Source: a virus
Taxonomy: Duplodnaviria; Caudoviricetes
Strand: one strand, 5' to 3'
Length of the DNA stretch: 64,000 bases
IMG/VR virus record: IMGVR_UViG_3300029305_003510
Span: 64,001 to 128,000 of that record
The position numbers and the translations under genes are program-made. The number at the start of each line of letters is the position of its first letter. Positions within the stretch are counted from its first letter, which is position 1. This document shows positions 3,097 through 61,178 of the stretch, piece by piece. The notes under the pieces are model-generated. The model was given only the letters and a program-made list of their open reading frames with translations, was not told the DNA's origin and did not search any database.

Positions 3097-3462
3097 TTAG
3101 GCTCTGGGGACAAGAACCATAAACCCATCTGTATCACGAACGCCCTCTTTAGTCTTCTTGATCTTCTTATCTTTCACACGCTGATTATAATTAGCTCGGA
3201 TCTTGCCGATCAGATCACTAACCTCAGCGGCACCAGCGTTAATGATTACAGACAGAATCTCTTCATCTCTGGCCTCTTTTCCGTATACAGGAATAGCCAG
3301 CAGAGCCACAATCAGGTCACGATTAACATCTTTCATCACAACCTGAGTAGTCTTTTTACTCTCAGACTTTGCAAGCAACATTGCACGTACATCTGCAGCC
3401 ATATCAATATTCATCCTTTCTCTCGGAGTTATTATTTTGTCTGCTGATAAATCAATAAACAA
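3097..3462 (-). CDS. Hypothetical protein with C-terminal DxDGFxxLxP tag
   Basis: 121-aa ORF (true start may be an internal ATG); ends RDTDGFMVLVPRA. Confidence 0.7.
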   Translation of the reverse strand: MFIDLSADKIITPRERMNIDMAADVRAMLLAKSESKKTTQVVMKDVNRDLIVALLAIPVYGKEARDEEILSVIINAGAAEVSDLIGKIRANYNQRVKDKKIKKTKEGVRDTDGFMVLVPRA

Positions 3463-3499
3463 TGATCTCTTGTGGGTTTAGTAATATTTTAGCACCTCG

Positions 3500-3511
3500 A
3501 ACACCACTATA
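3500..3511 (+). promoter_or_regulatory. Putative late promoter AACA-N4-TATA
   Basis: AACACCACTATA upstream of the RNAP beta-like gene; the same motif precedes most virion operons. Confidence 0.65.
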
Positions 3512-3535
3512 ACGTATACAAATATTGTGTGCTGA

Positions 3536-6500
3536 TTGAATCCTGAAACGAAAGGTTGTGAAGATAACATGGTAAGGGTTGACTATCTGGACCCTTTTAT
3601 GGTTTACCAGACGAAGCCGCCTGTCATTATGCCTGAAACCCAGGGGGATCGTAAGAAGGATCAGGCATATGTCGTAATTGCGCCCACGATTGAACAGGAG
3701 CTTCAATTCCTTTCAACAAATAAGGTGCTATCTTTCCGTTATTTATCGAAGTATTTTGTAGAGAAAAGATGGGACACAAAACTGTATGGAGCCGGACGAG
3801 TAATCACGCTTCCCAATAAAGATGGGGAGCTTTCTAATCTTCTGGGCAGATATCACACAGGAAATCTCAAAGATCTTGATGAAGTCACATCTTTCCTCCC
3901 CACAAATAAAACTGATCTTCTAAAACGTCTGAACGTATTGGTTGAAGTCAACCACGTAACCAATGGTGTATTGACTAACCCGAAAGATAATCGAATTCTC
4001 CGCATGAAAGTTCAAGATTTGATCAAAGAACTTAGTCGGGTAATCGAAATTGACTATCTTGGACCTTATCAGAGAACCATTATTATCCCCATGGAACTCT
4101 GGTTTGATGCTGAGGAATATAACGCACCAGCAAATCTCATGAAACCTATTAGCAAGAATCCTATGGGCGTCTTTCTCGGGATGCTTACCGATGTAAATAC
4201 TCTCAGAAAATTCGGTAATATCATGCTGGTTGATGGTAATTACGTGCTGAAGATGAATGCTGATAGTATTCCTGATAAAGAAAAGGATGACCCGAAAGAG
4301 TTCATCGAAGAGCAAATTACTGCTTTCATGAGGAAAGCTCGTAAGCGTAATCCGGCATATCTTGCTCCTATTAAAGAAATGGACGGAGAAGATGATCCTT
4401 CTACCGTTTCTCTTGCAGTTGCAGCGGAGAAAACACGTAAAGAAATGACAGCTGATAAAGCTATCGAGGCAATCAAAGCTGATCCAGATAAAGTATCTCC
4501 GGAAAAGAAAGAAGCGATTGCTAAAAAGGTTGAAGAGAAAATTGCAGCAAAGCCTGCCAGCAGTTCCTCTTCACCAGCTCCTGCAATGGTTGATGAGTAT
4601 GATAGTGGCACTGATCCTGAGGATGAACTCATTCGTCTGGATGAAGATCTTCCTAAGATTGAGTTCGATAAACCTGGTGAAGCCGATGTTATTCTCTCTG
4701 CAAAAATGTCTGGTAGATCTGTTGCATCTGAGAAACGTAATGAGATGCTGAAAGATAAGTATCGTGAACTTAAGTTCGGTGCTACATCTATGATGGATCT
4801 CATTGAAACTGAAACTGCCGCAGAGATTCCGGTTATCGAAACAAAAGCGCGTACGATTAATCCGGCTCTAAAGAAGCTCTCTGCTCAGCGGTTTGAAGAG
4901 ACCTATGATAAGACCCTGATGCAGCATGACCTTGTCAGTATTCTTCTTCATTTCTCCGGTGTACGTCCTGCAATGTATTTGAATAAAGATATCGAGATCG
5001 AAGATGTTTCGTCCAGAACTGATCGTGTATTAAAATACACGGTTACATTCGAAGATGAAGATCGTAAACGTCATCGGTTCTCATTCAAATTGCCGAAGAT
5101 GTATAAGCATAAATATCTCTTCTTAAATGGACAGGAACTTACGATTACTCATCAGAAGCTGCCATTCCCGATTACAAAAGTTCAGGCTGATCGTTGTCAG
5201 TTGGTAACTAACTACAATAAGATCTTCGTATATCGATATGGTACTGCGCTTTCTCCGAGAATCATTCGACTGAAGAAAATCTTAAGTGGTGAAAATCTTC
5301 CTAACTGTGTCATTCGTAAGGGTGATTGTACATCGATGAACAAATCCCGTCTTACCACGATTGAGTTTGATGAACTTGCAAGCAATTTCGTGAAAATTCA
5401 GATTGGTAAAATGAATGACAATATTTCGTTCTTGTTCGATCCTGATGCTACTAGCGTCATGTTTGATGAGAGAAAAATGCCGACTAAAGTTGATTCTGTT
5501 ACCAGTGATGAACTCGATAAAATCGAAGATAAGACCTTGTTCCCCATTGCTCTCAGAAAAACCAAATCTTCCAATCAGTCTGTAGTGATTCAGTATTGGT
5601 TGTCTGGCACAACCAATCAGGTTTATGATGATAAGGGGATAAAACAGGGTGAACTCTCTGACTTTCTGATTCAGAATCTGATTGAATTCAATCCAAATCT
5701 TGAGAAAGATTTTGCTGATACCAGTGCTGGTAGTAAGTTCATGTATTCTCGTGTAAGGATCATGTCTCAAGATATTCCGCTGATTCTTGTCATGGGTGCA
5801 GCTGATCCTAATGGTCTTATTGGTGCACTAGAGAAGAGTAAGATCAACTACCAATTTGTTGAGAAACGTCCTACCGTTGATAAAAACGTCACTGGCGTCA
5901 TTCCTTTCGCGGATGGGTATTTCGTTTTCGATCGATATCCTTATGAGAACTCTCTGCTGCTTAATGGTCTTTCTACGTTCCCGTCTAAGGAGTATAACTT
6001 TTATGATATGAACATGAGAGACACTTATGTAGATATTTTCGATCTCATGTGTGGACAGAGAACTCTTGCAGATAACCTGCCTGCATTTAACTATATGATG
6101 ATCGATCCCATCACAAAAGAAGTTCTCAATAAGTTGGATATGCCTACAGATTTTGTAACCTTGCTTCATTTCTGTAATGGCGTATTGGCTGACAATTCTT
6201 TCCAGATTGACTCGAACTATGAGAACAGCCGTATTCGCTCTAACGAGATTATTATGGCACATCTCTACAGAGAACTGGCTGTTGCATGGTCCAATTATCG
6301 ATCTGGTAGAACTGACACTTTTTCTATTCCTGAAGATATTATCCTTAAACTTTTACTCACGTCTAAGATCGTGGACCCGAAGTCGAAGTTGAATATCTCG
6401 CTGGAACTTGAAAATGATCGCAATGTGAAACTTAAGGGTCCAAGTGGTATGAATGAAGACCATTCGTTTACGATTGAAAAGCGTGCATATCATCCTACTA

Positions 6501-7888
6501 TGCGTGGCGTCGTTGCTACAAATAGTACACCTTCTGGTGAAGTTGGTATCAATCGACATATGGTTACTAATGCGAATCTGAAAGATGCTCGCGGTTTTAT
6601 CGAAATTAAGAAAGATTCGTATGATGGTACTGAGCTGCTATCTCCCGGTGAGATGCTTCAGCCTTTTGGTCCTGAATCCGCCGATATTGAGCGTCTTTGT
6701 ATGTCAATTTCGCAGTCCAAACATCTCGTACCCGTTGCTTCGCAGTGCTCTTGTCCTGTGTCTTATGATATGGAGCGTATTGCACCATACATGAGTAATG
6801 ATTTTGCGTTTACGGCAAAACAAGATGGTAAAGTAGTAGAGATCTCTGAGGATCTTATGATCGTTCAGTATACTGATGGAAGTTTCGATGATATTGACCT
6901 CTCTGAACATCCAGCTCGTAATACTGATGGTGGTTTCTATATCATGAATAAGATGGATGCTAGACTGAAAGTCGGTAATCGGTTCAAAGCTGGCGATATT
7001 CTAGCTTTTGATAAAAAGACTATCAACGATCTTGATTTCTTCGGTGATCCCTGTGCTAACGTCGGCACACTTGCACGTGTTGCTTTCGAATCTAATGGTT
7101 CAGTCTTTGAAGACTCCGGATATATTACCGATGACTTTGCTCACCGATTTGCAACACAGATCACAAAGCAGAAGCGAGTTATTCTCTCTAAGTATGCTAA
7201 TATCAAATATATTGCTAAGATTGGACAGAAAGTCCAAGCAAATGATCCCATCTTAGCGTTTGATGATACGAAAGATGAATTCTCGTCTCAGCTTCTGGCT
7301 TCTATCACTGATCAGCTTGCCGATGAAGATGAAGTGATTGCTACCAGTGCACCTGTTATCAGTAAGTATACTGGAACAATTAAGGACATTCAGATCATCT
7401 ATACTGTTCCACTGGAAGATATGTCACCGAGTCTCCGGAAGGTTGTTGACAGTTATGCTAAAGATGCATCTAAACGCGAAAAAGTTGTCGGCAAATATCG
7501 TGACATCCGCGATGCGAACACTATCATGAAATCTTCCGAGATGGCTATTCCTGATTCCCGTGGTAAGGTTGCTGGCACTAAGATTAATGAAGGTGTTATC
7601 ATTGACTTCTACATCGAATATGAAGATGTTGCCGGTAATGGTGATAAGGGTTCTATCACTGCTCTGAAATTTACTGTCTGTAATGTAGTGCCGTCAGAGC
7701 TTGCCGGATATACTGAATTCAATCCTGATCGAAAGATTGAAGTATATGTGGCATCGTTTGGCGCATTCAAACGAATGGTTGCGGACGTTGAGAAGATTGG
7801 TATTCTGACTAAAGTTCTTGTCGAGAGTAAGAGAATGCTTAAAGACGAATATAGTCAGAAAATCAAAGATGCATTGAAAAAGAAATAA
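3536..7888 (+). CDS. Phage multisubunit RNA polymerase beta-like subunit (probably virion RNAP) with a long N-terminal extension; start may be ATG 3569
   Basis: RpoB-like motifs in order: KLKGPSG, STPSGEVGINRH, RGFIE, SQSKHLVPV, AKQDGKVVEI, FEDSGYI, GDKG. Lacks the RpoB C-terminus, as in split jumbo-phage RNAPs. Confidence 0.85.
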   Translation: MNPETKGCEDNMVRVDYLDPFMVYQTKPPVIMPETQGDRKKDQAYVVIAPTIEQELQFLSTNKVLSFRYLSKYFVEKRWDTKLYGAGRVITLPNKDGELSNLLGRYHTGNLKDLDEVTSFLPTNKTDLLKRLNVLVEVNHVTNGVLTNPKDNRILRMKVQDLIKELSRVIEIDYLGPYQRTIIIPMELWFDAEEYNAPANLMKPISKNPMGVFLGMLTDVNTLRKFGNIMLVDGNYVLKMNADSIPDKEKDDPKEFIEEQITAFMRKARKRNPAYLAPIKEMDGEDDPSTVSLAVAAEKTRKEMTADKAIEAIKADPDKVSPEKKEAIAKKVEEKIAAKPASSSSSPAPAMVDEYDSGTDPEDELIRLDEDLPKIEFDKPGEADVILSAKMSGRSVASEKRNEMLKDKYRELKFGATSMMDLIETETAAEIPVIETKARTINPALKKLSAQRFEETYDKTLMQHDLVSILLHFSGVRPAMYLNKDIEIEDVSSRTDRVLKYTVTFEDEDRKRHRFSFKLPKMYKHKYLFLNGQELTITHQKLPFPITKVQADRCQLVTNYNKIFVYRYGTALSPRIIRLKKILSGENLPNCVIRKGDCTSMNKSRLTTIEFDELASNFVKIQIGKMNDNISFLFDPDATSVMFDERKMPTKVDSVTSDELDKIEDKTLFPIALRKTKSSNQSVVIQYWLSGTTNQVYDDKGIKQGELSDFLIQNLIEFNPNLEKDFADTSAGSKFMYSRVRIMSQDIPLILVMGAADPNGLIGALEKSKINYQFVEKRPTVDKNVTGVIPFADGYFVFDRYPYENSLLLNGLSTFPSKEYNFYDMNMRDTYVDIFDLMCGQRTLADNLPAFNYMMIDPITKEVLNKLDMPTDFVTLLHFCNGVLADNSFQIDSNYENSRIRSNEIIMAHLYRELAVAWSNYRSGRTDTFSIPEDIILKLLLTSKIVDPKSKLNISLELENDRNVKLKGPSGMNEDHSFTIEKRAYHPTMRGVVATNSTPSGEVGINRHMVTNANLKDARGFIEIKKDSYDGTELLSPGEMLQPFGPESADIERLCMSISQSKHLVPVASQCSCPVSYDMERIAPYMSNDFAFTAKQDGKVVEISEDLMIVQYTDGSFDDIDLSEHPARNTDGGFYIMNKMDARLKVGNRFKAGDILAFDKKTINDLDFFGDPCANVGTLARVAFESNGSVFEDSGYITDDFAHRFATQITKQKRVILSKYANIKYIAKIGQKVQANDPILAFDDTKDEFSSQLLASITDQLADEDEVIATSAPVISKYTGTIKDIQIIYTVPLEDMSPSLRKVVDSYAKDASKREKVVGKYRDIRDANTIMKSSEMAIPDSRGKVAGTKINEGVIIDFYIEYEDVAGNGDKGSITALKFTVCNVVPSELAGYTEFNPDRKIEVYVASFGAFKRMVADVEKIGILTKVLVESKRMLKDEYSQKIKDALKKK

Positions 7889-7892
7889 ACAA

Positions 7893-7923
7893 ATACGAGG
7901 GTGGGACTGTCCCACCCTCGTAT
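7893..7923. terminator. Bidirectional terminator
   Basis: ATACGAGGGTGGGAC-T-GTCCCACCCTCGTAT between convergent genes. Confidence 0.8.
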
Positions 7924-7936
7924 ACTTTTTATATCA

Positions 7937-8818
7937 TCATTTCTTGTGTTTACCCACACGATACGCTGCTGTAATCGTATTACGCATCAACATTGCACGT
8001 GTCATTAATCCAATTCCACCAGGAACAGGAGTGTACCATAATGCATTCTTATATGTATCAGGATGAAAATCACCACACAAATTTCCATCAGCATCTCGAT
8101 TAATACCAACGTCAATAATACCAAATTCGCGATCTGTCGGCACCATATCCGGTGTAATGAAATTCGGCTTACCGACAGCGCTTACAATGATATTCGAATG
8201 TGTTGTATGCTCTTTAAGCTCCAGCGTATGAGAATGGCACACAGTGACAGTTGCATTCTTTTGCATAAATAACTGAGCCAAAGGTTTACCGACAATATCA
8301 GACCTACCGATAATTGTCACATTATAACCATGAATCATATCCAGATTATAGTATTCGAGAAGCTTCCAAATACCGGCAACAGTACACGGCAGCATATACT
8401 CATGCGGTGAGTTATCTGCATACAGAAGTCCCATATTCTCGGTAGTAATACCGTCCACATCTTTGATGGGTGAAATAGTGTTAATGATAGCAGCTCTATC
8501 ACCAGCGCTATAGAACATAGTTGGCAAAGGGAGTTGAACCATAATACCGCTAATCATATCATCCTCATTTAAGGCTTTGATGATAGAAATGATATCATTT
8601 GTGTAATTCTTATCACCGGGAAAAGAGTACACTATAGTTACAATTCCGCATTTACGAGCATCAGCTTCTTTATTTCGTACATAGATATCAGATGCAGCAT
8701 TCACACCAACCTTGATGATAGCGAGACGCGGTCTTACTGTGAACCTCTCTGCATGATCTCTAGTATCTTCCAAGATTTCGTTGGCGCACTCTTTTGCAAA
8801 TAAAATCTGCGAATTCAT
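7937..8818 (-). CDS. folD: Bifunctional 5,10-methylene-THF dehydrogenase/cyclohydrolase
   Basis: YVRNK, GIMVQLPLP, KDVDG, PCT, IIGRSDIVGKP, DVGINR, TPVPGGIG motifs. Confidence 0.97.
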   Translation of the reverse strand: MNSQILFAKECANEILEDTRDHAERFTVRPRLAIIKVGVNAASDIYVRNKEADARKCGIVTIVYSFPGDKNYTNDIISIIKALNEDDMISGIMVQLPLPTMFYSAGDRAAIINTISPIKDVDGITTENMGLLYADNSPHEYMLPCTVAGIWKLLEYYNLDMIHGYNVTIIGRSDIVGKPLAQLFMQKNATVTVCHSHTLELKEHTTHSNIIVSAVGKPNFITPDMVPTDREFGIIDVGINRDADGNLCGDFHPDTYKNALWYTPVPGGIGLMTRAMLMRNTITAAYRVGKHKK

Positions 8819-8822
8819 ATTC

Positions 8823-9221: not shown

Positions 9222-9235
9222 AGTTAATTACCTCC

Positions 9236-9904
9236 TTAGAATTGGTACAGATCGTAAGCTTTCATAAAGTCATTCATATCAGACTTATAAGTTTCAACAG
9301 ATCCATCTCGTTTATAAACGAGAATCTTGAATTTGAAATCATAGTCTGTATACGCACAACATTGAGCCTGTATCTCATAAACACCCTCCACACCTTTTCG
9401 GTGGAAGTTTATGAAATTGGCAAGCTCATTAATATTATCAATGACAGTATCAGTTTGGTATACGTCCATTACCTCAACTTCACCGTCATATGATGCACGG
9501 AGTTTAAAACTGATAGCAATCTTATCAATCTCCATCAGTCTTAGATATGCTTTTAGAGAAATACGCATATACATATGCTCAGTTGCATTAACCAGCACAT
9601 ATAGATCATCATACTTTTTCTGAAGCTCTTTCAACTTCTTGAGATCAAATCGAGTGCTACTAATAATAACCTTGGGTTTACCATCTTTACTATAAATAGC
9701 AAGATTGTCAAACTTCACAAAATGGAAGTCCTTTACAAAACGGCTGGACTTCCATTTCTTGAGTTTCTTCCAAAGCCAATGCTTCCAAGAACCCTTCTTA
9801 AACTCAGGAGCTTTAATCTCTTTCTCTTTTGATTTCTTATCTTTCTTCGATTTCTCTTCACTCTTACGCGGAACGAGAGTGAAGAACTCATCTTTCTTGC
9901 TCAC
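9236..9904 (-). CDS. Hypothetical basic protein (possible paralog of 9901-10626)
   Basis: 222-aa ORF, GTG start overlapping the upstream stop; begins MSKKDEFFTLVPRK. Confidence 0.75.
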   Translation of the reverse strand: MSKKDEFFTLVPRKSEEKSKKDKKSKEKEIKAPEFKKGSWKHWLWKKLKKWKSSRFVKDFHFVKFDNLAIYSKDGKPKVIISSTRFDLKKLKELQKKYDDLYVLVNATEHMYMRISLKAYLRLMEIDKIAISFKLRASYDGEVEVMDVYQTDTVIDNINELANFINFHRKGVEGVYEIQAQCCAYTDYDFKFKILVYKRDGSVETYKSDMNDFMKAYDLYQF

Positions 9905-10626
9905 AACGTCACCCTTCCTTTCTCGTCTACGTTGATATTGAGTAAATCAAAAATCTTCTGAGGATTACCAGCTACGACATCGTATGTATAGTCATCATAC
10001 ACAACAATAGCTTTCAATGTTATAGTAACCACCTCAAGATGCTCTTTATTACACATTTTAATATAGCGATCAATATTTACGTACATCATACGCTGAATGA
10101 TCTCAAGAGCTTGTTTTAATTCAGATGGCGTATCTATAATGAGATACGGAAATGATGAATTATCTGTATCAGTTGCCAGATGATCTAACACTTTACTTTT
10201 ACCACCAATATCCATCTCAGCTCTGACCCGACACATAATACCAACACGTTTGATATGTCGAACTTTTCTAGAACATTCACATTTAGCAAATGTTCCGGAA
10301 GATCGTTTCCAGTCAATAGTCTTCCCTACATTATTCCAAGCTTTATTTTGCCAAGCTTTCCGATTATATGCAGTGACTAATCTTTTAAACCCGGTATTAT
10401 TCTGATAGTCGCTAGCATAAATACGATATGTAGTAGCTCTGGTGTTCTGTTCACCTGGAGATACTCGGCCTTTCGGATAATATAAATAATTATCACCAAC
10501 AGGTAGACCTTTTCTGGGAGATGCGATTTCACCAGGTTCATTCTTAGAATCAAATGATATATCTGATCCAATTCGTTTTAGAATAATGAACCCATCGTCA
10601 TCTCGATATTGACTCTTTTTACTCAC
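9901..10626 (-). CDS. Hypothetical basic protein with N-terminal DxDGF tag
   Basis: 241-aa ORF with GGAGG RBS; begins MSKKSQYRDDDGFIILKRI. Confidence 0.8.
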   Translation of the reverse strand: MSKKSQYRDDDGFIILKRIGSDISFDSKNEPGEIASPRKGLPVGDNYLYYPKGRVSPGEQNTRATTYRIYASDYQNNTGFKRLVTAYNRKAWQNKAWNNVGKTIDWKRSSGTFAKCECSRKVRHIKRVGIMCRVRAEMDIGGKSKVLDHLATDTDNSSFPYLIIDTPSELKQALEIIQRMMYVNIDRYIKMCNKEHLEVVTITLKAIVVYDDYTYDVVAGNPQKIFDLLNINVDEKGRVTL

Positions 10627-10808
10627 ACAACTTCCTCCAATTTCCGCAGAATTATATCATCGTCTGTATATGTTTCAGAAAAGAATAAACTCAGAGGTTT
10701 AGCGCATAGGTTCTACTTATAGGTAGATAGAATATGCTTATAGCATAAACATAAAGGTAGAATAAAGAGAAGAAAGTAATATAAAGAAAGAGAAAATAAG
10801 AGATTTAA

Positions 10809-10992: not shown

Positions 10993-11119
10993 CAAATTTT
11001 GAGATAAAATTATTAAAATTTCTAAATAAATCAAAAATTACTATTCGATAATACAGATAACAACTAGATAAATAATCATCTGAATCTATCAGAAATGAAA
11101 GGAGTTATTTGATAATACT

Positions 11120-12420: not shown

Positions 12421-12511
12421 AGAATGAGTGAGATGTTAAATCGTCTCACTCATCTTTCTTTTTCGCCTATATACTATAATGATGAAGATTATAGAAGAAA
12501 GGAGGACATGT

Positions 12512-13147
12512 ATGGGCAATTCGCCAGAGTATATTGTCTTCACAGATGCGTCATTGAGACGAAATAAGACAAGATCCTATTGTGCTTTCGGTGTTGTTGT
12601 ATTAAATCTAAAGACACTGGAATACGCCTCATTTGGGGCAGAGTTAGGAAGCCGCACAGTTACGTTTGGAGAGGGCTGGGCGGTGTATCGTGGAATTCAA
12701 GCTGTCTGTAATATCGTTGATAAGAAACGGAAAGATCCCATACAGATTTTAGTGGTGACGGACAGTAAGCTTACAGTGAAAGTTTTAAGTGAGTATATCC
12801 CGTTTGTGTGGGATACAAAAAATTGGGAGAACTGGAAGAAAGTAGATGGTTCTCCAGTAAAGAATCAAGGATTATATCGAAAGATAGTGGCATTGATTAA
12901 TGATCATCCCGAGATCCATCCTCGCATTGCTCATATCAATTCTCATCAGTCAGATAATGATTGGGAGAAGATTCAGAGTAAGTTGAAGAAGTATGGTATC
13001 AATGCTGACCCAAAAACAACACGTGTCTTTATGAATATGAATGATCTGGCAGATTCTATCTGTCAGGGCATCACAAAGAAGATGCGAGATGAAGAAGAGA
13101 AGACCGGTGAATTTATCCGGTTAATACCGAAAGGAGAACTAAAATGA
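12512..13147 (+). CDS. rnhA: Ribonuclease HI
   Basis: FTDAS, GEGWAV, VTDSK, WKKVDGSPVKNQGL, HINSH, NDLAD catalytic pattern; ATG 12512 follows AAGGAGG. Confidence 0.9.
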   Translation: MGNSPEYIVFTDASLRRNKTRSYCAFGVVVLNLKTLEYASFGAELGSRTVTFGEGWAVYRGIQAVCNIVDKKRKDPIQILVVTDSKLTVKVLSEYIPFVWDTKNWENWKKVDGSPVKNQGLYRKIVALINDHPEIHPRIAHINSHQSDNDWEKIQSKLKKYGINADPKTTRVFMNMNDLADSICQGITKKMRDEEEKTGEFIRLIPKGELK

Positions 13148-13533
13148 GAATGTTATTGGTAGGCCAAGCTAAAGATAGTAATGACATCGTCTATGGTGTA
13201 TCTCTTAACGGAAAAACTCTTGTAGAAATACTCGGAACATCACAAGGACCAATCACTCCTGCTGAATTAGTTCGGATCTGCAAAGAAAATGATTGTAAGA
13301 TTACAGCCGAACAGTATTTCACATATGCGAGCCTATTTATTAGGGTTATGACCGCACATCAATATGTATCATGGACAAGAGAGTCTATGAATGGTATTAT
13401 TGCAATGATGCAAGATGAGGATTGTGAGGGTATGTTGGATGAGTTTTTCAATTCTGACAACTATCCTCTCATGGAAGATCTTATGGGAGTCTTTGCTGAT
13501 ACTGACACATATCAGATTGTCCCGAAGGATTAA
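13144..13533 (+). CDS. Hypothetical protein
   Basis: 129-aa ORF translationally coupled to RNase H. Confidence 0.75.
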   Translation: MRMLLVGQAKDSNDIVYGVSLNGKTLVEILGTSQGPITPAELVRICKENDCKITAEQYFTYASLFIRVMTAHQYVSWTRESMNGIIAMMQDEDCEGMLDEFFNSDNYPLMEDLMGVFADTDTYQIVPKD

Positions 13534-16599: not shown

Positions 16600-17667
16600 A
16601 TGGTATTCATTCTGAACGAACAGAAGGCCACCAAGATTTTCGAGAACTATCGGAATGTGGCCGCCTTTACCCTGTCCAAGGGCCTGAAGGGTGCAACCAT
16701 CGGTGATCTGGAGGTTTCCTACGAGAAGCTGAATTTCCTGCCCGATGAGGACACTATCAACGCGATCAAGTCCGGCGACATGAAGCTGAAGAAGGTCATC
16801 AAGAAGGCCCTCAAGGCTCTGTATTCTCCCAGCATGGATAATGCGGCTATTGGTCTGGGCATGACTCAGCTGGTCACTATCCTGTCCAATAATCGTAAGG
16901 CTAAGCGCGGTCCCGCTGTTCTGGTCTTCGTGACTGACGAGGAGGATACTGCTCGCAACAAGATCATGACCAAGTATATCACTGCTCTTCTGAATGCTTT
17001 TGGTCTCAATCCCATCACTAAGGGCAAGGTTGTCAATAAGCTGTTCAAGAAGCGCAAGAAGGCTAAGGAGAAGGTCATTGAGTTCTCCAAGAAAAAGGAT
17101 TCCGGCTGCAATCTGTCCCGCAAGGGTGTTGAGCTGAAGCGTATCAATTACGTCTTCTATGAGCTGGAGATGCGTCAGTCTGCTATGACCAATATGGATC
17201 TGCGTGATATGGATAGCAGCGCTGCTGAAGCCTGCACCAAGAGCCTGCTGAAGGTTTATACCGCGGAGAACCTGAAGGAAGTGGACAAGAAGATTGCTAA
17301 GCGTTTGGCCAAGAAGGATAAGACCGCGGTTAAGGCTTATCAGAGCTTGAATGAGATCCTGGTCTCTATGAACGCTGATCTGAAGATGCCCAAGGTCAAG
17401 TTTGGCCAGAAGAAGAAGAAGGGCAAGGCTGTTGGTCCTAAGGTCAATACCAAGAAGTTCAAGAAGTTCTTCACCAAGAAGCGTAATCGCGGCATGCTGC
17501 TGCTGATCTATGCTCACACCCTGGCTGTAATGCTGGGCCTGGAGATTGGTTCCAAGGACTACAACTCCTACATGAAGGGTGTTTGCAACTCCTTCAAGGA
17601 GGGCTTCGGTAAGGAGTTTACCGCAGCTGCGACCGCTTATGCCAAGGGCGAGAACGCTGTCGGTTAA
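16600..17667 (+). CDS. Very lysine-rich hypothetical protein, probably highly expressed
   Basis: 355 aa, AAGGAGG RBS, strongly biased codons (AAG/CTG), followed by a terminator. Confidence 0.85.
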   Translation: MVFILNEQKATKIFENYRNVAAFTLSKGLKGATIGDLEVSYEKLNFLPDEDTINAIKSGDMKLKKVIKKALKALYSPSMDNAAIGLGMTQLVTILSNNRKAKRGPAVLVFVTDEEDTARNKIMTKYITALLNAFGLNPITKGKVVNKLFKKRKKAKEKVIEFSKKKDSGCNLSRKGVELKRINYVFYELEMRQSAMTNMDLRDMDSSAAEACTKSLLKVYTAENLKEVDKKIAKRLAKKDKTAVKAYQSLNEILVSMNADLKMPKVKFGQKKKKGKAVGPKVNTKKFKKFFTKKRNRGMLLLIYAHTLAVMLGLEIGSKDYNSYMKGVCNSFKEGFGKEFTAAATAYAKGENAVG

Positions 17668-17734: not shown

Positions 17735-18580
17735 GTGAGGACAATAGCCTTCATATATGAAGATCCGAATAGAGATCGACAAGGTTTCTATAAATTGAAA
17801 CGAACCTATAGCGATCTGTATAAGAAAGTAAATTATACAACACCTGTACAGATGGTGCAGAACAGAATCATTGAGTATGATATTAAATCTGCAAATATCA
17901 GCATGCTTCGACAAGCGGGTGTGGTTAAAAGTTCTACATTGGATGAATTAGAGAAACTCCCTAAGAAAGACCGACAAGTATTAATCGGTAAAATGCAGAA
18001 ACTTGACCCGAAACTGAAGAAGGTTATTGCCCGTGGAATCATTCAGGCTAAACATGATTTATTCCAAGCAAATGGAATCCAGGATAGTGAAGTGTTATCT
18101 ATTAAAAATGATGCACTTTTCATCGCTGGAAGGCGTTTGAAATATACAAAGTTTGGTGAGGTTGAGTTTAGGCCTAAGAACACGTATTCTTTCTATATCA
18201 AAATTGAAGGGATTGAGTTCTATTATGATTCTAAAAATGATATAGTTGCTGTTAAAGGTGTGAATGATTCAATAGTTGAACATCCAGATCATCAGGAAGG
18301 TATGATTCGATTCTTTGCAAAAGTTATGAAATTCATGGTATATGATCATCGTGATGCTTTGCGAAGATATCTGATTGAATTTTCTGATGACTATAAGAAC
18401 AAACGCCTTCCGGTACAATACTATCGTGAGTTTGGTAGCGCTAATATTTACCGGACAAATATGGGCATCGCTGAATATAGTTTTAATTTGGTTGCTGCAG
18501 GCGAAGATGATAAAGAGATCATCAATGGTGTGTTCAATTATATGAAGTTTGTACTTCCACTTATACAGACATTTATTTAG
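17735..18580 (+). CDS. Short DNA-polymerase-palm-like protein
   Basis: IIEYDIKSAN resembles polymerase motif A (DxxS); SIKNDAL resembles motif C; only 281 aa, no exonuclease domain. Confidence 0.5.
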   Translation: MRTIAFIYEDPNRDRQGFYKLKRTYSDLYKKVNYTTPVQMVQNRIIEYDIKSANISMLRQAGVVKSSTLDELEKLPKKDRQVLIGKMQKLDPKLKKVIARGIIQAKHDLFQANGIQDSEVLSIKNDALFIAGRRLKYTKFGEVEFRPKNTYSFYIKIEGIEFYYDSKNDIVAVKGVNDSIVEHPDHQEGMIRFFAKVMKFMVYDHRDALRRYLIEFSDDYKNKRLPVQYYREFGSANIYRTNMGIAEYSFNLVAAGEDDKEIINGVFNYMKFVLPLIQTFI

Positions 18581-26383: not shown

Positions 26384-27456
26384 TTCGGTGTGTAAATTTA
26401 CATTATTTCATTTTGATTAATGTAATATTTATATAATGTGGTGCCGCCATATAGGAAACTTATGGTGGAAACTCCGTAAACCTGTGATCCGCAGGGTGTG
26501 AAGATAACGAATAGTTACATCAGGAAATGGGTGTTTAATATCTTTGCTAACCGGGAACTGCAAGTGTGACGACTTGTTAATCCGGTGCCACGTTCAAATT
26601 TATTTATACCATCACATTCATATTCTATAGGAAAGGAGGGTGCATTATGAGCAAAGTTCAGGTTAATACATTATGGTCATTGGAAAACATAAAAGACCAA
26701 TACATATTTGATACTGAAACTCTTGATATTACAAATATATGGAGTGGCAGAATTATTTCTGTGTATATAGATAAACGTGGATATCCTGCTGTATCTATGA
26801 GTTTGAAAAATCCAACAAAAACTGGCAGAAGATATGCTAATGTAAAATATCATAAAATTATTGCATTAGCATGTATAAACAATGGTCCATATAAGCTCAT
26901 TGAACATCTTGATGATAATCCATTAAACTTTCATCCGAGCAATCTTAAGTTTTCAACTCAAACCGAAAATGCAAAAACTATGCGTGCAAATGGAATCAAT
27001 AATCATATTGATTCAATCTTTGAGTTGATGCTAACAGATGGAACGAAGTATATTGGAACAACAAAAGAGATTTCAGAGCAAAGCGGTATTCGCAGAGGCG
27101 CCATATATGATAAGATGTATCAGCGATATGATAAATCTCATACAAGGACTCAGCGAAAATATAATATACAACACGTTAAACTTCTCTATTCTGGGAATGA
27201 GCGGAGGAACGCTACAAAGAAAGAAAAGGTGCTACGGGAAAGGGATAGTGATGGGTTCCTTATCCTACATAGAATTAATAATTTGAACAGGTTCAGAGAC
27301 TAACGAAAGGATAGCCGGCGCATAAGGTTTGAGTCTTATCAACTCTTAACGGCGAGTAACCGAGTAGTGTTAGCTCCGAGATGGATACGGGAGCGAAAAT
27401 GGAGGGCCCTAACTAGGTGAAGCTAGAGGGCTGAGATATAGTCCGTTGGCCCGACG
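26384..27456 (+). mobile_element. Group I intron in nrdD
   Basis: P1 AUGCAU-UUCG-GUGUGU with U.G at the 5' splice site; R element TCAGAGACTA (~27293); S element GAGATATAGTCC (~27433); terminal G at 27456; removal restores NDMH|GGQS. Confidence 0.92.
26647..27303 (+). CDS. Intron-encoded HNH homing endonuclease
   Basis: KRGY...YHKIIALACI...IEHLDDNPLNFHPSNLKFSTQTEN; lies inside the intron and its stop overlaps the R element. Confidence 0.9.
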   Translation: MSKVQVNTLWSLENIKDQYIFDTETLDITNIWSGRIISVYIDKRGYPAVSMSLKNPTKTGRRYANVKYHKIIALACINNGPYKLIEHLDDNPLNFHPSNLKFSTQTENAKTMRANGINNHIDSIFELMLTDGTKYIGTTKEISEQSGIRRGAIYDKMYQRYDKSHTRTQRKYNIQHVKLLYSGNERRNATKKEKVLRERDSDGFLILHRINNLNRFRD

Positions 27457-52338: not shown

Positions 52339-52343
52339 TACGC

Positions 52344-52661: not shown

Positions 52662-54449
52662 ATGAGTGCTAATTATCTCAAACTTTTATCGGCAACGGAT
52701 AAACTTCCAGTGCATACTGATTTAGATACACTGGATATCTACTGTGAATATCTGTTGAACGATTCCAGCAAATACATAAACTATGCAAATTTAACGAATC
52801 TTCAGGATTACATATCGAGAATGGATCCGAAGATCTTTATGACGAATGATGCAAAGATGGCTCGATATGAATTCATCAAGTGCTATCTGGAAGCTCGTAT
52901 CAGTCGTGGTGTAGTTTCTCGTAAGATGTGTCTCCGATATGTAAGTGAAACTGTAGATCATAAGTATTGGAAGATCATCCAGCGAGAGATTCTTAATTCG
53001 ATTGAACCTGATACACTGAAGAAGAAAGATATTGAATTTATCAATGATATGATCTTTGCTCAATTGAACGTCATGTTTCTGCATGCATACAAGGCTCCGA
53101 TTGTGCGACTTATGGAAGAATTGGAGACGAATGAGTTCGGTAAAACTCCTGAGAGTTGTACGAATGCAATCCAGTTATTCCAGAGTATGTTGAATGAGCT
53201 TATGAAAGCTCAGCGGAGATCTAAGCAGGACAATAGATTCAATCTGACAGACGTGAACCATTTTAATGCTATTATGACTGAAGCATGGGATAGACTGTTA
53301 TCTGAAAGTCAATTCTGGCAGACTGGTATGCAGGGTATGAATAACATGCTTGGTGGTGGCTTTGAGAATGGTCGAGTGTACAATTTCATTGGTGCAACAG
53401 GTGGTTTTAAATCTGGTTTGTTGTTAAATCTGATGAAGATGATCAAGCTTCATAATAAGGGCCATGAACACAAAGATCCAAATAAACGTCCAACCATACT
53501 CTTTCTCTCTCAGGAAAATAATATCTGGGAGACTATTTTACGTATTTTTGGTATCTTTGGAACAACCAAGAACATTCGGAATTTTACACCGGATGAAATT
53601 ATGGAGATTCTAAAGAAAGGTGGCTTCTGTCTTGTAAATGATGAGCAGGATATCGATATCGAGTTTCGATACTATGGAAATATGGATATCGGTGCAAGTG
53701 ATATTCGAGGTATTGTCGAAGAGCTTGACAATGCAGGTAGAGAAGTTATTTGTATCCTGCAAGACTATATTGAGAGATTGAGACCGCCGATTATGTCGGC
53801 AGATCGTAGAACACAGCTTAATGACTGTTCTAACCAACTTCATGATCTGGCGATTGAGCTGGATATTCCTATTATCACCGGTTCACAGTTTAACCGAGAT
53901 GGTGTAGCAACAATCGAAGATATGAGAGCTGCTGATAAGCATGATATCGGTAAGAAAGTTGGTAGCAAGAATGTTTCCGAGTCATTTGGTATGTTGAAGA
54001 ACTTCGATGTAAATATTAGCATTATCATCGAGTATGACGCAACAGAAGAACGATTCTGGTTGTCATTTAGACGTCTGAAATTCCGTGGTGATGATACGGA
54101 TGCTCTTGACTATTTTGTTCAGCCGTTTGTCGGAAAGAATAGCAAAATCCAGCTGATGGAAGATATCAATGCGGATGTTCCTGTGTATCGTAAATCTATG
54201 GTAGATGAGATTGCTGCAAATATTGTGGATGATGCTCAGTCTATCGGAGATATTACCAGACGCTCGAGAACTCTGCTTGAACCTGTAACGGATGATGCAG
54301 ATGATATTGAGATTGCAAACTTCATGGGACAGTTTGTAGACGATCTGGAACATTCTACTGGTGAGAAACCCGATGGAAGAATTACCGACAGTGACGGCTT
54401 CTATGTACTGATCCCGGCTATGCCGGGCAATGTCATCATGAGCCGTTGA
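52662..54449 (+). CDS. DnaB-like replicative helicase
   Basis: TG...LGGGF, Walker A GATGGFKS, FLSQEN, QDYI, ITGSQFNR. Confidence 0.9.
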   Translation: MSANYLKLLSATDKLPVHTDLDTLDIYCEYLLNDSSKYINYANLTNLQDYISRMDPKIFMTNDAKMARYEFIKCYLEARISRGVVSRKMCLRYVSETVDHKYWKIIQREILNSIEPDTLKKKDIEFINDMIFAQLNVMFLHAYKAPIVRLMEELETNEFGKTPESCTNAIQLFQSMLNELMKAQRRSKQDNRFNLTDVNHFNAIMTEAWDRLLSESQFWQTGMQGMNNMLGGGFENGRVYNFIGATGGFKSGLLLNLMKMIKLHNKGHEHKDPNKRPTILFLSQENNIWETILRIFGIFGTTKNIRNFTPDEIMEILKKGGFCLVNDEQDIDIEFRYYGNMDIGASDIRGIVEELDNAGREVICILQDYIERLRPPIMSADRRTQLNDCSNQLHDLAIELDIPIITGSQFNRDGVATIEDMRAADKHDIGKKVGSKNVSESFGMLKNFDVNISIIIEYDATEERFWLSFRRLKFRGDDTDALDYFVQPFVGKNSKIQLMEDINADVPVYRKSMVDEIAANIVDDAQSIGDITRRSRTLLEPVTDDADDIEIANFMGQFVDDLEHSTGEKPDGRITDSDGFYVLIPAMPGNVIMSR

Positions 54450-54489
54450 TGTATAAACACTGTAAATTATTTTAAGGAGGAAATAATCC

Positions 54490-55206: not shown

Positions 55207-55265
55207 GTCCCGTTGAGTGAAAGAAGATATGGATGGGACGTCATTGGTCCCATCCATATTCTTTT

Positions 55266-56085: not shown

Positions 56086-56148
56086 AAATAACACCTCCTT
56101 GGTGATTTTATAGGGTTGTCAAACCAAATCTAACAGGAAGCGAGTTGA

Positions 56149-57537
56149 ATGAATTCTGTGAGTTATATTAAGAGATATGATACAAAGGATAAGAAGGTTA
56201 GTTCGCTTCTTGTTGGTAATAAAGCAAAAATTAAAAAGAGTGAGCTAACAGAAAGTCAGAAAGCTGCTGATGAGGTCTTTAATAATTGGTGGTTTCATAA
56301 AAATAAAGAACGAAAACAGATCCTTAGAATTGGAGGCCCTGGTGGCTCAGGTAAAAGCTATTTGGTTCGATATATCATCGAGCATTATGGTTTTAATGAA
56401 TCGAATTGTTATGTTATGGCATATACAGGTCAAGCCACGAATGTTTTGAGACAATCTGGTATTATGGCAAGAACGATTCATTCTTCCATCATGATACCAC
56501 GTGATGAACCTGTTCTTGATAAAAACACACATAAACCTATCTATCGAAATGGTATCCCTCTTACTACTGTAAAGTTTAAACCTTTAAAGAAGCTTCCAAA
56601 AGGCATTAAACTCCTAATTGTAGATGAGGCATCTTTTCTACCTCTCGACATGGAGAATACGCTGAAAAGTTTTGGTATTCCTATTTTAGAGATTGGAGAC
56701 CCTATTCAGCTTCCTCCAGTTAGTCGTGATGCTCAACCGTTTCATTTACGGAATTTGGATTACATTATGACTGGCTCTATGCGACAGAAAGCTGGCAGTG
56801 AGCTCCTTGATTTCTGTACCAGATTTCGTAGATTAGAAAATATTGATACCCGGCAATATCATGATGATGTCTTATTTCTATATGCACAGCCTACTTTAGA
56901 AGAAACATTCTGGAAGTTCTATCCATTTTTTAAGAGTGCAAATGTGATTGTTACGGCTGATAATAAACAGCGTCAGGTTTATAATGATCTTTATCGGGAG
57001 CATATTCTAAAAACAAATTCCCCATTCCCGATTGAAGGTGAACGAATGATCTGCAGACGCAACAACCATGCGATGTCTCTCGGACAGTATACTCTTGTGA
57101 ATGGTACGCAAGGTATCTGTATGCGGGATGTAGGACGGTCTATGGTAGACAAGGGTTCTCATGTATTTTATATGGATTTTCAGCCATTTACCTCTACAGA
57201 TCCTGAGGAGTATTATGGGGATTTAATGTGTGACACAGACTTCTTACATAGACCTTATGGTGTGGATATGTTCAATCAATATAAACCCGGTGAGAAGTTT
57301 GAATATGCCCATGCTATTACAACACATCTGATGCAGGGTGCGCAAGAAGATACGGTTATGTTCATGGATACGTTTAAAGGAGATCAGGAGTATCTTTGGC
57401 GTCTACGATATACTGCTGCAACCCGTGCAAAGAAGCGACTCATTTATGTCATTCCATATAGCCATAAACCCGGATGGAGTGATATCCGTTTTATGGAAGA
57501 CTCTCTTGGTAGTGTGCTTGGAGATCTTGTTCGATAA
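56149..57537 (+). CDS. Dda/RecD-like SF1B helicase
   Basis: GGPGGSGKS, AYTGQA, TIHS, VDEAS, IGDPIQLPPV, AITTHLMQG, YTAATRA. Confidence 0.92.
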   Translation: MNSVSYIKRYDTKDKKVSSLLVGNKAKIKKSELTESQKAADEVFNNWWFHKNKERKQILRIGGPGGSGKSYLVRYIIEHYGFNESNCYVMAYTGQATNVLRQSGIMARTIHSSIMIPRDEPVLDKNTHKPIYRNGIPLTTVKFKPLKKLPKGIKLLIVDEASFLPLDMENTLKSFGIPILEIGDPIQLPPVSRDAQPFHLRNLDYIMTGSMRQKAGSELLDFCTRFRRLENIDTRQYHDDVLFLYAQPTLEETFWKFYPFFKSANVIVTADNKQRQVYNDLYREHILKTNSPFPIEGERMICRRNNHAMSLGQYTLVNGTQGICMRDVGRSMVDKGSHVFYMDFQPFTSTDPEEYYGDLMCDTDFLHRPYGVDMFNQYKPGEKFEYAHAITTHLMQGAQEDTVMFMDTFKGDQEYLWRLRYTAATRAKKRLIYVIPYSHKPGWSDIRFMEDSLGSVLGDLVR

Positions 57538-57556
57538 TGAAAGGAGAATTATATCA

Positions 57557-58066
57557 ATGAGTGGTGTAGCAATAATCGTTCATCATGATGATGGTAAAGA
57601 AAAGTGGCAATCCCATGAGGTATATCTTAAATATCCTATCACTTATGAGGGCTTTGAATTCAGTCAACGTGGATATGGATCTACATTGGAAGAAGCATAT
57701 CAGGACTTCATTGCTAAGTACAATAATGCAATGAAAAATCTGGAAGCACAGAGTCATATGATTCTTGAGACCGATGCTCTTGAGATATTGGAAGTTGATT
57801 GTTTCGGTGACCCTATATTCCGGCTGAATAAAAAGATGTATGGGAAACTTTATCAAATCGGTGAGTTGCATACCAAAGTTTTATATGCAATGTATCTTGA
57901 GGTTGGTTCAGCAACACGTTCTGGTGATGTAAATGTTGTACGAGATGTTCTGAACAGAATTGAGAATGATAAGTTTTATTTTGCAGATCGATCTGAACCT
58001 TTGTATGCCAAGGACTATGGTAAGACGTGGCATGCATATAAATCAGAGGGAACCATCTATAACTAA
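57557..58066 (+). CDS. Hypothetical protein
   Basis: ATG 57557 after AAGGAG. Confidence 0.75.
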   Translation: MSGVAIIVHHDDGKEKWQSHEVYLKYPITYEGFEFSQRGYGSTLEEAYQDFIAKYNNAMKNLEAQSHMILETDALEILEVDCFGDPIFRLNKKMYGKLYQIGELHTKVLYAMYLEVGSATRSGDVNVVRDVLNRIENDKFYFADRSEPLYAKDYGKTWHAYKSEGTIYN

Positions 58067-58084
58067 CATTGGAGGTATATCATT

Positions 58085-58612
58085 ATGAGTAACCGACTCT
58101 CTAAGCCTTTATATTATCTCAGCATTGCTCAGTCTGTAGCATCAAGAAGTACCTGTATTAATAAGAAATGGGGAGCTGTTATTGTAAAAGGAGATGAAAT
58201 TATCTCTACTGGATATAATGGGGCTCCTCGTGGTCGTAAGAACTGCATTGATATTGGATCTTGTTATCGGTTGGTGAACAATATCCCCCGTGGGACTCAG
58301 TATGAATCCTGTAGATCCCTTCATAGTGAGGCCAATGCAATTATCTCTGCGGCTAGAAAAGATATGATCAATGGTACTATGTATTTGTATGGTTGGGATG
58401 TTGTGAATCAATGTCTTGTAGAACATGCAGACAGTTGCATGATGTGTAAACGGATGATTATTAATGCTGGTATCATTGAAGTTGTCGTAGCAGATGTCAA
58501 TGGTATTGCTAAAGATCCTGAAGTAGGCTATGGTTATCGCATTATCAAAGTCTCTGATTGGGTAAAAGATGATGATCTGAAGACTGTCAATGAGGGTAAG
58601 GCTGGGTATTAA
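58085..58612 (+). CDS. dCMP deaminase
   Basis: RSTC, GAVIV, TGYNG, HSEANAI, SCMMCKRMIINAGI. Confidence 0.93.
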   Translation: MSNRLSKPLYYLSIAQSVASRSTCINKKWGAVIVKGDEIISTGYNGAPRGRKNCIDIGSCYRLVNNIPRGTQYESCRSLHSEANAIISAARKDMINGTMYLYGWDVVNQCLVEHADSCMMCKRMIINAGIIEVVVADVNGIAKDPEVGYGYRIIKVSDWVKDDDLKTVNEGKAGY

Positions 58613-58656
58613 AGGCCACAACATCACTATAAACTGATAAGAAAGGTGGTACATCC

Positions 58657-59235
58657 ATGCCTAGTGTTGCCGATTTTTTGCTCAAGCGTGTACAGGAAAA
58701 TGGCTGGTTTTCTGTTGGCAGCCTTTATTTTGATAACTGCTATACCCTTCAGCCTTTTGAAATTGATGGGCGCATTTGTCTCTCCCCGAGCGCTGAGCTG
58801 ATTATTGCAATCAATAACTATGACGCGATTGATTCTGCAACGCTGGATGACTATCTGGTGCACGATGAGCGGCGCATTGGATACCAGCAGAATATCGCTA
58901 TTTTCGGTTTCGAACATCTTCAGCATTTTGCTGTCAATCTTTTCAATTTGACGCATGTATATCCCAGCAAGGTTGAAGAGTTTCCTCTTCCTGCTATTCC
59001 CACTCCAGATGTAATCAACGGTATTACTTTGGATCCTGAAACCGGTTTGGCTGCAGATCAATCTGTTGCTCGTAAGATCACACGTAAGGAGATTGCCACT
59101 ATGGATTTGTTTCCAGATCTGGAGATCTCTGATGCATCTGGTGCACGTATTAAGAAGTTGCAAGACTTCTATGCGAACCAGAAACAGTTCGCAGAAGCTA
59201 TGAATAAGTTCCTCGGACTTTCGGACTGTATTTAA
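58657..59235 (+). CDS. Hypothetical protein
   Basis: 192 aa downstream of AACATCACTATA (58620-58631). Confidence 0.75.
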   Translation: MPSVADFLLKRVQENGWFSVGSLYFDNCYTLQPFEIDGRICLSPSAELIIAINNYDAIDSATLDDYLVHDERRIGYQQNIAIFGFEHLQHFAVNLFNLTHVYPSKVEEFPLPAIPTPDVINGITLDPETGLAADQSVARKITRKEIATMDLFPDLEISDASGARIKKLQDFYANQKQFAEAMNKFLGLSDCI

Positions 59236-59441
59236 TGATCTGCGACCTAACAGAATAATAACCCTTTGGTCGTAGTATGCATTAGGAGTTCGAATTCCAA
59301 ATACATACTATAGACTTGAACAACGGGGTGTCAGTGGTAATACACTGCGCCCCGTAGTTTACCTTTCTCATTCAGGAAAGGGTGTTAGTGTTGGCGCCAG
59401 CATTAACGAGAAAATCTATTATATCAAGGAGGAATCCGACC

Positions 59442-60086
59442 ATGAGCAAGAAAAAGAAGAACAAGAAGAATTCTTGGAAGTATTTCGATGGGGGATACGA
59501 CAAGAAGAAGTCTGGCAAGAAGGGCAAGAAGAATAAGCGTTCCGTTTATGATAAGCCCAAGATGAAGACCGTTAAGCCGACTCTGTCCAAGAAGGACGCA
59601 AAGGCTAATAAGAAGGTCGTTCTGTCTCCTGTGGAAGTCCCCAAGGAGTTCAGAAAGAATCGCCTGAAGTGCAACCATGCTGTGCGCATGATTACCCCTG
59701 AGGCATACCGCAACATGACTCCTACCTATGCGGCTTACACTCCGGCGCTGGAGCGTGTGGTCGAGAAGTATGGTGAGGATCATGTCCATGTCTGCAAGGA
59801 CTGCTATGATGTTCTGGTTGATCGCAATCTGATCACTTCCGATGAAGTCTATGATGCCATGACCACTCTGTATGTGGCTTGCAATGTTGCTGTTGCCAAT
59901 AAGCGTCTGAAGGAAGATGAGGTTAAGGCTATTGCAAAGCTGAAAGATGTCGTCGAAGACTTCCGTCCTGTTCTGGACATCCTGGAGAAGATCGAAGAGG
60001 AAGGAACTGAGTCTGCTCAGCCTACCAATACCGCGAGCCTGAATGCCAATAGCGGCGCTGTATTTGTAGATCCCAGTGATGACTGA
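59442..60086 (+). CDS. Protein with lysine-rich N-terminus and Zn-binding motifs
   Basis: AAGGAGG RBS; MSKKKKNKK...; KCNH and VCKDC; biased codons. Confidence 0.8.
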   Translation: MSKKKKNKKNSWKYFDGGYDKKKSGKKGKKNKRSVYDKPKMKTVKPTLSKKDAKANKKVVLSPVEVPKEFRKNRLKCNHAVRMITPEAYRNMTPTYAAYTPALERVVEKYGEDHVHVCKDCYDVLVDRNLITSDEVYDAMTTLYVACNVAVANKRLKEDEVKAIAKLKDVVEDFRPVLDILEKIEEEGTESAQPTNTASLNANSGAVFVDPSDD

Positions 60087-60329
60087 TAATAGTCACTCAG
60101 TGCTACAATAAAGAGGGACGAGCGGGTATAATCCCGCTCGTTTCTTTTTCTTTTATTTTTGTATATGTTAAGTAGCGAGTAGGTATTCGCATATTACTTA
60201 TAATTTGATTGTGTTACAAACACAGTTATACAAATGAGCCGAAGAATCCGGTTTATTGACTGTATCTCTCGGAATATATATTATAGTATAGAGAAAAGAA
60301 AAGAAATTTCGAGAGGATGTGAATTATAG

Positions 60330-61178
60330 ATGAGCAAAAGAGTTATTAGAAAGTTTGATCCTAAAAAGATAAAGGGTGAAAGATGGGGCAAACTAGAAGT
60401 TGTTCGATTTGATCATGATGAGATCAAGCATGGAAAATACGGCAAATATAAAGTGCATTATGTATTGTTCCATTGCGAGTGTGGAAAAGAAAAGATACTC
60501 GATTATTATTCAGTCGCATCAAATACCAGAGGTGCGGTGAGAAGTTGTGGGTGTGCGTATTATGATAAAATGAAAGATGTGCGTAAATATCCAGATAGTA
60601 TGCGAAATTCACCACTCTATAATGTATACCATAATATGGTACATCGGTGTTATGATATTAAAGACAAAGATTATCATAAATATGGTGCGCGTGGTATTTA
60701 TGTGTGTGATGACTGGATAAAACCTGACAAAGTTCAAGGTTATATGAACTTTTATAATTGGGCGATTAATAGTGGATATGCCGGATATGAACCCGGTACG
60801 CCACGTAAAAATAGACCTACGTTAGATCGTATTGACAATAATGGTCCGTATGCTCCGTGGAATTGTAGATGGACTACCTATATAGAGCAAGCTAATAATA
60901 GACGGAGTGCAAGATATATAACAGATCTTGATGGTGAAGTTCTTACTTGGGCAGAATTCGATAGGAAGCATAATCTTCCATATAGAACCACAAAACAGCG
61001 AAAGCATCTGTATAAAGGTCAATGTTGGTCCGATGATGCTGTACTATATGCATCATATTACCAAGATAGAGGAATTCGCAAGAAGGTACGTACTGGTGAA
61101 TTTATTGATAAAGATGGATTCAAAGTATTAATACCTACAAAAGAAACTTTAAGGAGGATTTTAAAGTATGGCTCGTGA
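60330..61178 (+). CDS. Free-standing HNH-type homing endonuclease
   Basis: HCECG, RSCGC, MVHRCY, YGARGIYVCDDW, TLDRIDNNGPYAPWNCRW. Confidence 0.88.
   Translation: MSKRVIRKFDPKKIKGERWGKLEVVRFDHDEIKHGKYGKYKVHYVLFHCECGKEKILDYYSVASNTRGAVRSCGCAYYDKMKDVRKYPDSMRNSPLYNVYHNMVHRCYDIKDKDYHKYGARGIYVCDDWIKPDKVQGYMNFYNWAINSGYAGYEPGTPRKNRPTLDRIDNNGPYAPWNCRWTTYIEQANNRRSARYITDLDGEVLTWAEFDRKHNLPYRTTKQRKHLYKGQCWSDDAVLYASYYQDRGIRKKVRTGEFIDKDGFKVLIPTKETLRRILKYGS

Follow-up and report, generated by a model that had tools for sequence, protein, structure and literature searches.

About 20 unrelated DNA- or RNA-handling proteins per genome bear the same ten-residue peptide in the phage lineage that includes the source of the DNA analyzed here, a 64,000-nucleotide stretch (hereafter the window) of the IMG/VR virus record IMGVR_UViG_3300029305_003510. 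This peptide, referred to as the tag, is a real, portable motif that is private to the lineage and biased towards nucleic-acid enzymes, and it works most like the toolbelt of the T4 clamp protein gp45. The tagged proteins probably dock on one hub on the phage DNA, and we see about an even chance that the hub reading the tags is a clamp-fold protein of 244 amino acids (aa).

The nearest named phages of the DnaB-like helicase in the window are AR9/PBS1, Staphylococcus PALS2-type phages, LPJP1 and phiR1-37 (26-32% identity), and uncultured relatives reside on contigs reaching 220-290 kb, one of them from a sheep-colon metagenome-assembled genome. These affinities and the large uncultured relatives indicate that the window is a fragment of an AR9-like gut jumbo phage, with an estimated completeness of 29%. 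The comparison covered six relatives, of which three (G003-G005) are complete and three partial, and four outgroups in culture (AR9, phiR1-37, LPJP1 and PALS2), with genes called by a purpose-written script.

A short peptide shared by unrelated nucleic-acid-acting proteins

A preliminary description of the window had reported the motif D-x-D-G-F-x-x-L near the ends of non-homologous open reading frames (ORFs), and all nine stretches that it listed translate as given, in the frame of real ORFs. As a fixed pattern (D.DGF..L), the motif has five matches in the six frames of the 75.5-kb contig, all in the coding frame and at most about 20 residues from a protein end, compared with 0.03 expected from shuffled proteomes. 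The sixth strong copy, at 17771, fits the looser D..GF..L, and the six strong copies lie 8-20 residues from a terminus, inside the limit of about 25 given in that description. Comparison of the codons also bore out that the DNA differs between the copies in the window, so the conservation is at the peptide level. In the complete relatives the fixed pattern matches 9 (G003), 11 (G004) and 10 (G005) times against about 0.1 in shuffles that preserve local composition, G003 and G004 being close relatives. Most matches are terminal (8/9, 10/11 and 8/10, respectively; P 4e-5 to 2e-3), and the proposed test of terminal enrichment is thereby answered positively in the relatives. There is no match to the fixed pattern in AR9, phiR1-37, LPJP1 or PALS2.

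A profile of the tag has the consensus R-D-x-[DE]-G-[FY]-hydrophobic-x-L-x-[PKR]-[KRT] and scores above 14 bits at 25, 26 and 19 sites in G003, G004 and G005, spread across 34 sequence clusters, while no site in shuffles or outgroup proteins reaches this score; the profile was trained on the clade itself, and the fixed-pattern count is the only independent test. The spacing of L+3 and P+5 is fixed across the 34 clusters. Tags are found at N-ends, at C-ends and in linkers, with up to three copies per protein; they are subterminal, N-terminal or internal, and basic residues (Lys/Arg) often come next. Their flanks contain 61% disorder-promoting residues, compared with 50% in the proteome. Targeted literature searching found no paper describing such tags. 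The tagged sites in the window are as follows.

3103..3138, minus strand: tag at the C-terminus of a 101-aa clade-specific protein with no assigned function (ORF 3097-3402); 6/6 orthologues tagged; 30 bits.
9863..9892, minus strand: degenerate tag at the N-terminus of a 222-aa unannotated protein (ORF 9236-9904); full tags at the same end in the G003, G004 and G005 orthologues; core score p=0.005.
10570..10605, minus strand: tag at the N-terminus of a 241-aa unannotated protein (ORF 9901-10626); 29 bits; G002 orthologue tagged at the same end.
13103..13132, plus strand: degenerate tag at the C-terminus of RNase H1 (ORF 12479-13147; Pfam RNase_H); G002, G003 and G004 orthologues tagged, 18-25 bits.
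17771..17806, plus strand: tag in the N-terminal extension of a 281-aa core protein (ORF 17735-18580); tagged in 7/7 clade records.
27241..27276, plus strand: tag at the C-terminus of an HNH endonuclease (ORF 26647-27303) between two NrdD pieces; assigned from Pfam HNH_3 (E 6e-4, below the cut-off) and the ORF layout.
54384..54419, plus strand: tag in the C-terminal tail of the DnaB-like helicase (ORF 52662-54449; Pfam divDNAB, 4.6e-25).
61104..61139, plus strand: tag at the C-terminus of a free-standing HNH-like endonuclease (ORF 60330-61178), assigned from a family alignment.

Of the three weaker copies proposed earlier, 9863-9892 and 13103-13132 are supported because the orthologues in relatives bear full-strength tags at the same ends; the third (13498..13530, plus strand) was rejected, with a profile score of -13 bits and no orthologue found in the relatives. 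The DnaB tag is present in 113 of 120 homologues and forms a conserved island within a variable tail. Homologues of the HNH endonuclease of ORF 26647-27303 in other phages align only to residue 153-203, upstream of the tag. The family of the free-standing HNH-like protein, which has no Pfam or NCBIfam match, shares a D-R-I-D...N-C-R-W HNH-like core and is tagged in 6/8 members. ORF 17735-18580 had been called polymerase-like; its AR9 orthologue is the hypothetical protein BI022_gp238, and it is a core gene in all AR9-like phages examined and not the replicative polymerase. Its N-terminal extension is missing in the AR9, LPJP1 and PALS2 orthologues, and Pfam, PHROGs, NCBIfam and PDB gave no assignment for the 281-aa protein; two conserved Asp motifs in it are reminiscent of a polymerase palm. 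GyrB lacks the tag, as had been stated, but gyrase is tagged on its other subunit: the GyrA gene begins just beyond the window end (window coordinate 64499 onward, G000 contig) and bears a degenerate tag there, and the GyrA orthologues have full tags in G001 and G005 and have lost the tag in G006. An internal tag-like string at about 6581-6616 of the virion RNA polymerase beta gene (window 3569-7888, plus strand) scores 7 bits here and 22 bits in G005 and was not counted as a tag. That the tag switched ends, from N to C, in a single family of orthologues was rejected for the genes upstream of 9236-9904, which show no detectable homology.

Across the clade, AR9 annotation and family searches identified DnaB, an SF2 helicase, NAD ligase, GyrA, RNase H and a PC4-family protein as tagged, together with HNH nucleases, a BRO/Ant antirepressor and two proteins of a diversity-generating retroelement (DGR), namely the reverse transcriptase, with one or two copies, and Avd. 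In the non-virion RNA polymerase, the beta-N subunit has a tail of about 110 residues that bears three copies, a serine resolvase is tagged in one genome only, and about ten unannotated families are tagged as well. The tag occurs in 13 of 29 nucleic-acid-acting families versus 0 of 27 virion/packaging families of the complete genomes, with functional classes assigned by hand and some nucleic-acid families included because they are tagged. The earlier observation that virion and metabolic proteins do not carry the motif therefore holds, with a single weak internal profile match (15.9 bits) in one metabolic enzyme, SHMT. The tags sit on clade-specific extensions that the outgroup orthologues lack, and in imported genes they fall outside the conserved domains. 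Antirepressor homologues align only upstream of the tag, and the two closest reverse transcriptases from other phages that were checked are untagged. Both the absence from outgroup orthologues and the broader proposal of a portable linear motif working at either terminus of non-homologous nucleic-acid-acting proteins are strongly supported.

The tag is far from universal among proteins acting on DNA. DNAP-N, DNAP-C, primase, RecA, SbcCD, Dda, RusA, GyrB and the clamp-fold protein are untagged, as are at least eight free-standing or intron-borne endonucleases (three GIY-YIG, the LAGLIDADG protein of the window, two or three HNH_3 and two HNH-like). It has also been gained and lost among orthologues, for example those of the resolvase, GyrA and RNase H, the last being tagged in 4/6 records. 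Where the clade has its DnaB tag, the DnaB proteins of AR9 (L068:1453-3138) and LPJP1 (L071:754-2526) have an acidic I-P-F tail like the bacterial SSB C-terminal peptide. The DGR genes (Avd and reverse transcriptase) lie among tail-fibre-like genes (L021:570-2799 in G003; L035:9190-11318 in G005). In-frame HNH or LAGLIDADG domains within dCMP deaminase and Dda-like helicase ORFs (G003 70845, G001 52105 and G001 50241) are probably inteins.

A clamp-fold protein as candidate reader of the tag

Earlier work attributed no classical sliding clamp to jumbo phages related to phiKZ and AR9 (PMC7824862). In G003-G006, a two-domain unannotated protein of 244 aa is encoded directly after DNAP-N, the N-terminal DNA polymerase subunit; this arrangement was found in four clade genomes and ten metagenome loci, some of them redundant. 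The G003 protein (G003 192861-193595) has a confidently predicted monomer fold (pLDDT 95), and each of its 39 best structural matches is a sliding clamp or a processivity factor, including PCNA (Z 10.5; root-mean-square deviation 4.0, 193 residues aligned), T4 gp45 (Z 9.0) and the gp45 structure with a bound ligase peptide (PDB 6drt). The next unrelated match has a Z of 4.9, and Foldseek concurs. A natural fusion of DNAP-N with the clamp-fold domain also exists as a 937-aa protein (P0216). A 270-aa gene upstream of DNAP-N, which first looked clamp-like by eye, was dropped; its product is acidic and it occurs only in G003, G004 and close kin.

The closest parallel is T4 gp45, which is bound by interchangeable peptides borne on flexible linkers at protein ends, those of transcription proteins included (PMC2988020). 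In the T4/RB69 system (the C-termini of gp43, gp33 and gp55 and the ligase peptide), as in this clade, short swappable peptides stand on the flexible ends of replication and late-transcription proteins, and a two-domain clamp-fold protein is encoded beside the polymerase. The clade differs in having another consensus, in placing it at either end or in linkers, and in having about 20 putative clients, mobile-element proteins included, versus a handful; its polymerase is untagged and no loader was found. The PCNA-interacting peptide (PIP) box, the beta-clamp motif QL[SD]LF and the SSB C-terminal peptide likewise place one short motif on unrelated genome-maintenance proteins that share one hub, although none resembles the tag in sequence and the tag is private to one phage lineage; nor is it an acidic I-P-F at the extreme C-terminus like the SSB peptide. 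Two features of the client systems of gp45, PCNA and the beta clamp are present here, namely a clamp-fold gene and a motif on the flexible ends of ligase, RNase H and transcription proteins. Because a motif on the polymerase and the known consensus are both missing, we do not file the clade as a member of these systems.

A second parallel is provided by the chimalliviruses, whose Rhc protein joins RNase H and a clamp domain in one chain and binds the polymerase via a folded interface (PMC13648687, PMC13648698). The clade shares with Rhc (phiKZ gp155, Goslar gp190; a non-ring clamp) a related split B-family polymerase, a clamp-fold accessory protein and the lack of an identified loader, and the RNase H of the window is homologous to the RNase H domain of phiKZ Rhc (E 1.3e-5). 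In contrast to Rhc, RNase H (207-220 aa) and the clamp-fold protein (244 aa) are encoded here by separate, far-apart genes, and no client peptide has been described for Rhc (the word 'motif' is absent from PMC13648698). Since RNase H is separate from the clamp yet usually tagged, the peptide may have replaced an Rhc-type fusion. At the sequence level, HHalign gave the clamp candidate and the clamp domain of phiKZ Rhc (as a single sequence) a probability of 0.2%, and the two share the same general fold class.

These parallels suggest how the tag may act. The peptide probably forms a turn and a short strand that bind one phage protein on the phage DNA, so that tagged proteins would be recruited to a single partner, as the preliminary description had supposed. 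If that partner is the clamp-fold protein, it would grip the polymerase via a folded interface, as phiKZ Rhc does, leaving the peptide site free, and the free site would make the protein a toolbelt able to carry ligase, RNase H, helicases, gyrase and the late RNA polymerase. By gaining the tag, genes of mobile origin (those for HNH nucleases, the DGR proteins, resolvase and antirepressor) would have their products concentrated on replicating phage DNA. All of these binding steps are put forward by inference.

Several observations weigh against the clamp-fold protein as the reader. Comparison of position frequencies showed no match of the consensus to the PIP box, QL[SD]LF or LDFLF, and DNAP-N and DNAP-C have best profile scores below 5 bits in all records, so they are untagged, unlike T4 gp43. 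To our knowledge, DnaB, Avd and the antirepressor are not typical clamp clients. In the predicted model, domain 2 has fewer strands and a stub of the second helix; no AAA+ clamp loader was detected (PF00004 had no match in G003 or G004 and only weak ones in G005, and a divergent or host loader is possible), and together these make ring closure doubtful, recalling the non-ring Rhc clamp of the chimalliviruses. A map of conservation on the clamp-fold protein singles out no peptide pocket. Because the clamp gene lies outside the 75-kb fragment, its presence in the window phage is inferred from relatives whose DnaB shares 60-64% identity with that of the window. Lastly, AR9, PALS2 and LPJP1 have similar-sized genes after DNAP-N, which are only candidates as clamps, yet they have no such tag. 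These unannotated genes encode 238-326 aa (PALS2 L125:8105-8887, LPJP1 L109:15330-16310 and, for AR9, L081 near 106726-107442); they may be the counterparts of the clamp gene, with weak similarity between the PALS2 and LPJP1 products, and sequence comparison of the clade clamp with the outgroup candidates was uninformative. Modelled as a complex, the clamp candidate and the DnaB tail of G003 scored 0.02 (mark 0.32), a value used neither for nor against the interaction.

Other possible readers and roles of the tag

The tag may instead dock proteins on another abundant phage protein within an unenclosed replication factory, such as a 355-aa basic protein (window 16600-17667, plus strand) or an SSB-like protein encoded beside DNAP-C. 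We regard this possibility as unlikely. The client range, extending to transcription, recombination and retroelement proteins, is wider than that of known clamps, and the untagged DNA polymerase would be less surprising for such a hub; the 355-aa protein is clade-restricted, sits among tagged genes and has a codon bias at the level of the major capsid gene in G003. It has no recognizable fold, however (best Z 5.1), so nothing ties it to the peptides, whereas the clamp-fold protein belongs to a known type of peptide reader and is present. The 355-aa protein is lysine-rich, is predicted with a pLDDT of 93 without a convincing structural match, and is a candidate nucleoid or scaffold protein.

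An import gate was suspected first, because the client list resembles the cargo of the phage nucleus. The tag would then be a linear import signal for a chimallin-independent DNA compartment, the first such phage signal, with one tagged subunit bringing each complex in and mobile elements acquiring the tag for entry. Gyrase and the non-virion RNA polymerase do each have a single tagged subunit (GyrA and beta-N, respectively), the tag is found on both DGR proteins and on many homing endonucleases, and it is missing from cultured AR9-like phages. G003 and G004 also encode a tubulin/FtsZ-family gene (L012:12390-13613 in G003, minus strand), with homologues in G002 and G006 and none found in G005. 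As in the nucleus import of Chimalliviridae (ChmA shell, PicA/Imp1), the tagged set includes RNA polymerase, helicase, ligase, RNase H and homing endonucleases. The known import, however, recognizes folded surfaces and not terminal peptides (PMC12908238, PMC13282480), whereas the tag is linear and mostly terminal. No ChmA or PicA homologue was detected in searches of limited sensitivity: phrog_4795 had no match in the three complete genomes, with no positive control responding, phmmer with phiKZ gp54 found nothing although other core genes matched, and neither phrog_3141 nor phiKZ gp69 had a match for PicA/Imp1. Many DNA-acting proteins would have to enter untagged, among them both polymerase subunits, the clamp, primase, RecA, SbcCD, Dda and RusA, and the gain and loss of the tag among orthologues is also difficult to reconcile with a signal for entry. 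The untagged GIY-YIG, LAGLIDADG, HNH_3 and HNH-like nucleases argue against an obligatory pass, and with at least eight such endonucleases, the tags on selfish nucleases do not show that the tag is needed to reach phage DNA, a need with which those tags had been said to fit. We therefore consider an import signal rather improbable. Among the partners proposed in the preliminary description, a clamp has thus gained a candidate in the relatives, while the import gate has been weakened by the lack of a detected ChmA or PicA and by the untagged endonucleases.

It is very improbable that the tag acts without a partner, as a beta-hairpin with a basic tail binding nucleic acid or as a convergent structural turn: D-x-D-G-[FY] hairpins are common in proteins, Lys/Arg often follows the tag, the DNA-binding region of an HNH protein contains a similar string and one tag is overlapped by a Pfam RRP7 match, but a generic hairpin would neither be limited to one lineage and missing from four related phages nor hold its L+3 and P+5 spacing across 34 clusters. 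The RRP7 match (E 8e-5, just under the cut-off) is in an unannotated protein (L012:6784-7491 in G003, minus strand) and is probably a convergent resemblance.

Implications for AR9-like phages

A genome-wide peptide offers a testable way into how replication and late transcription are organized in AR9-like phages, which have no nucleus. The tag flags about ten unannotated families as probable DNA- or RNA-acting proteins. Its acquisition by incoming mobile genes (the DGR reverse transcriptase and Avd, HNH nucleases and the resolvase) suggests a lineage-private compatibility code, and if the peptide is portable, it could be used to target proteins to phage DNA.

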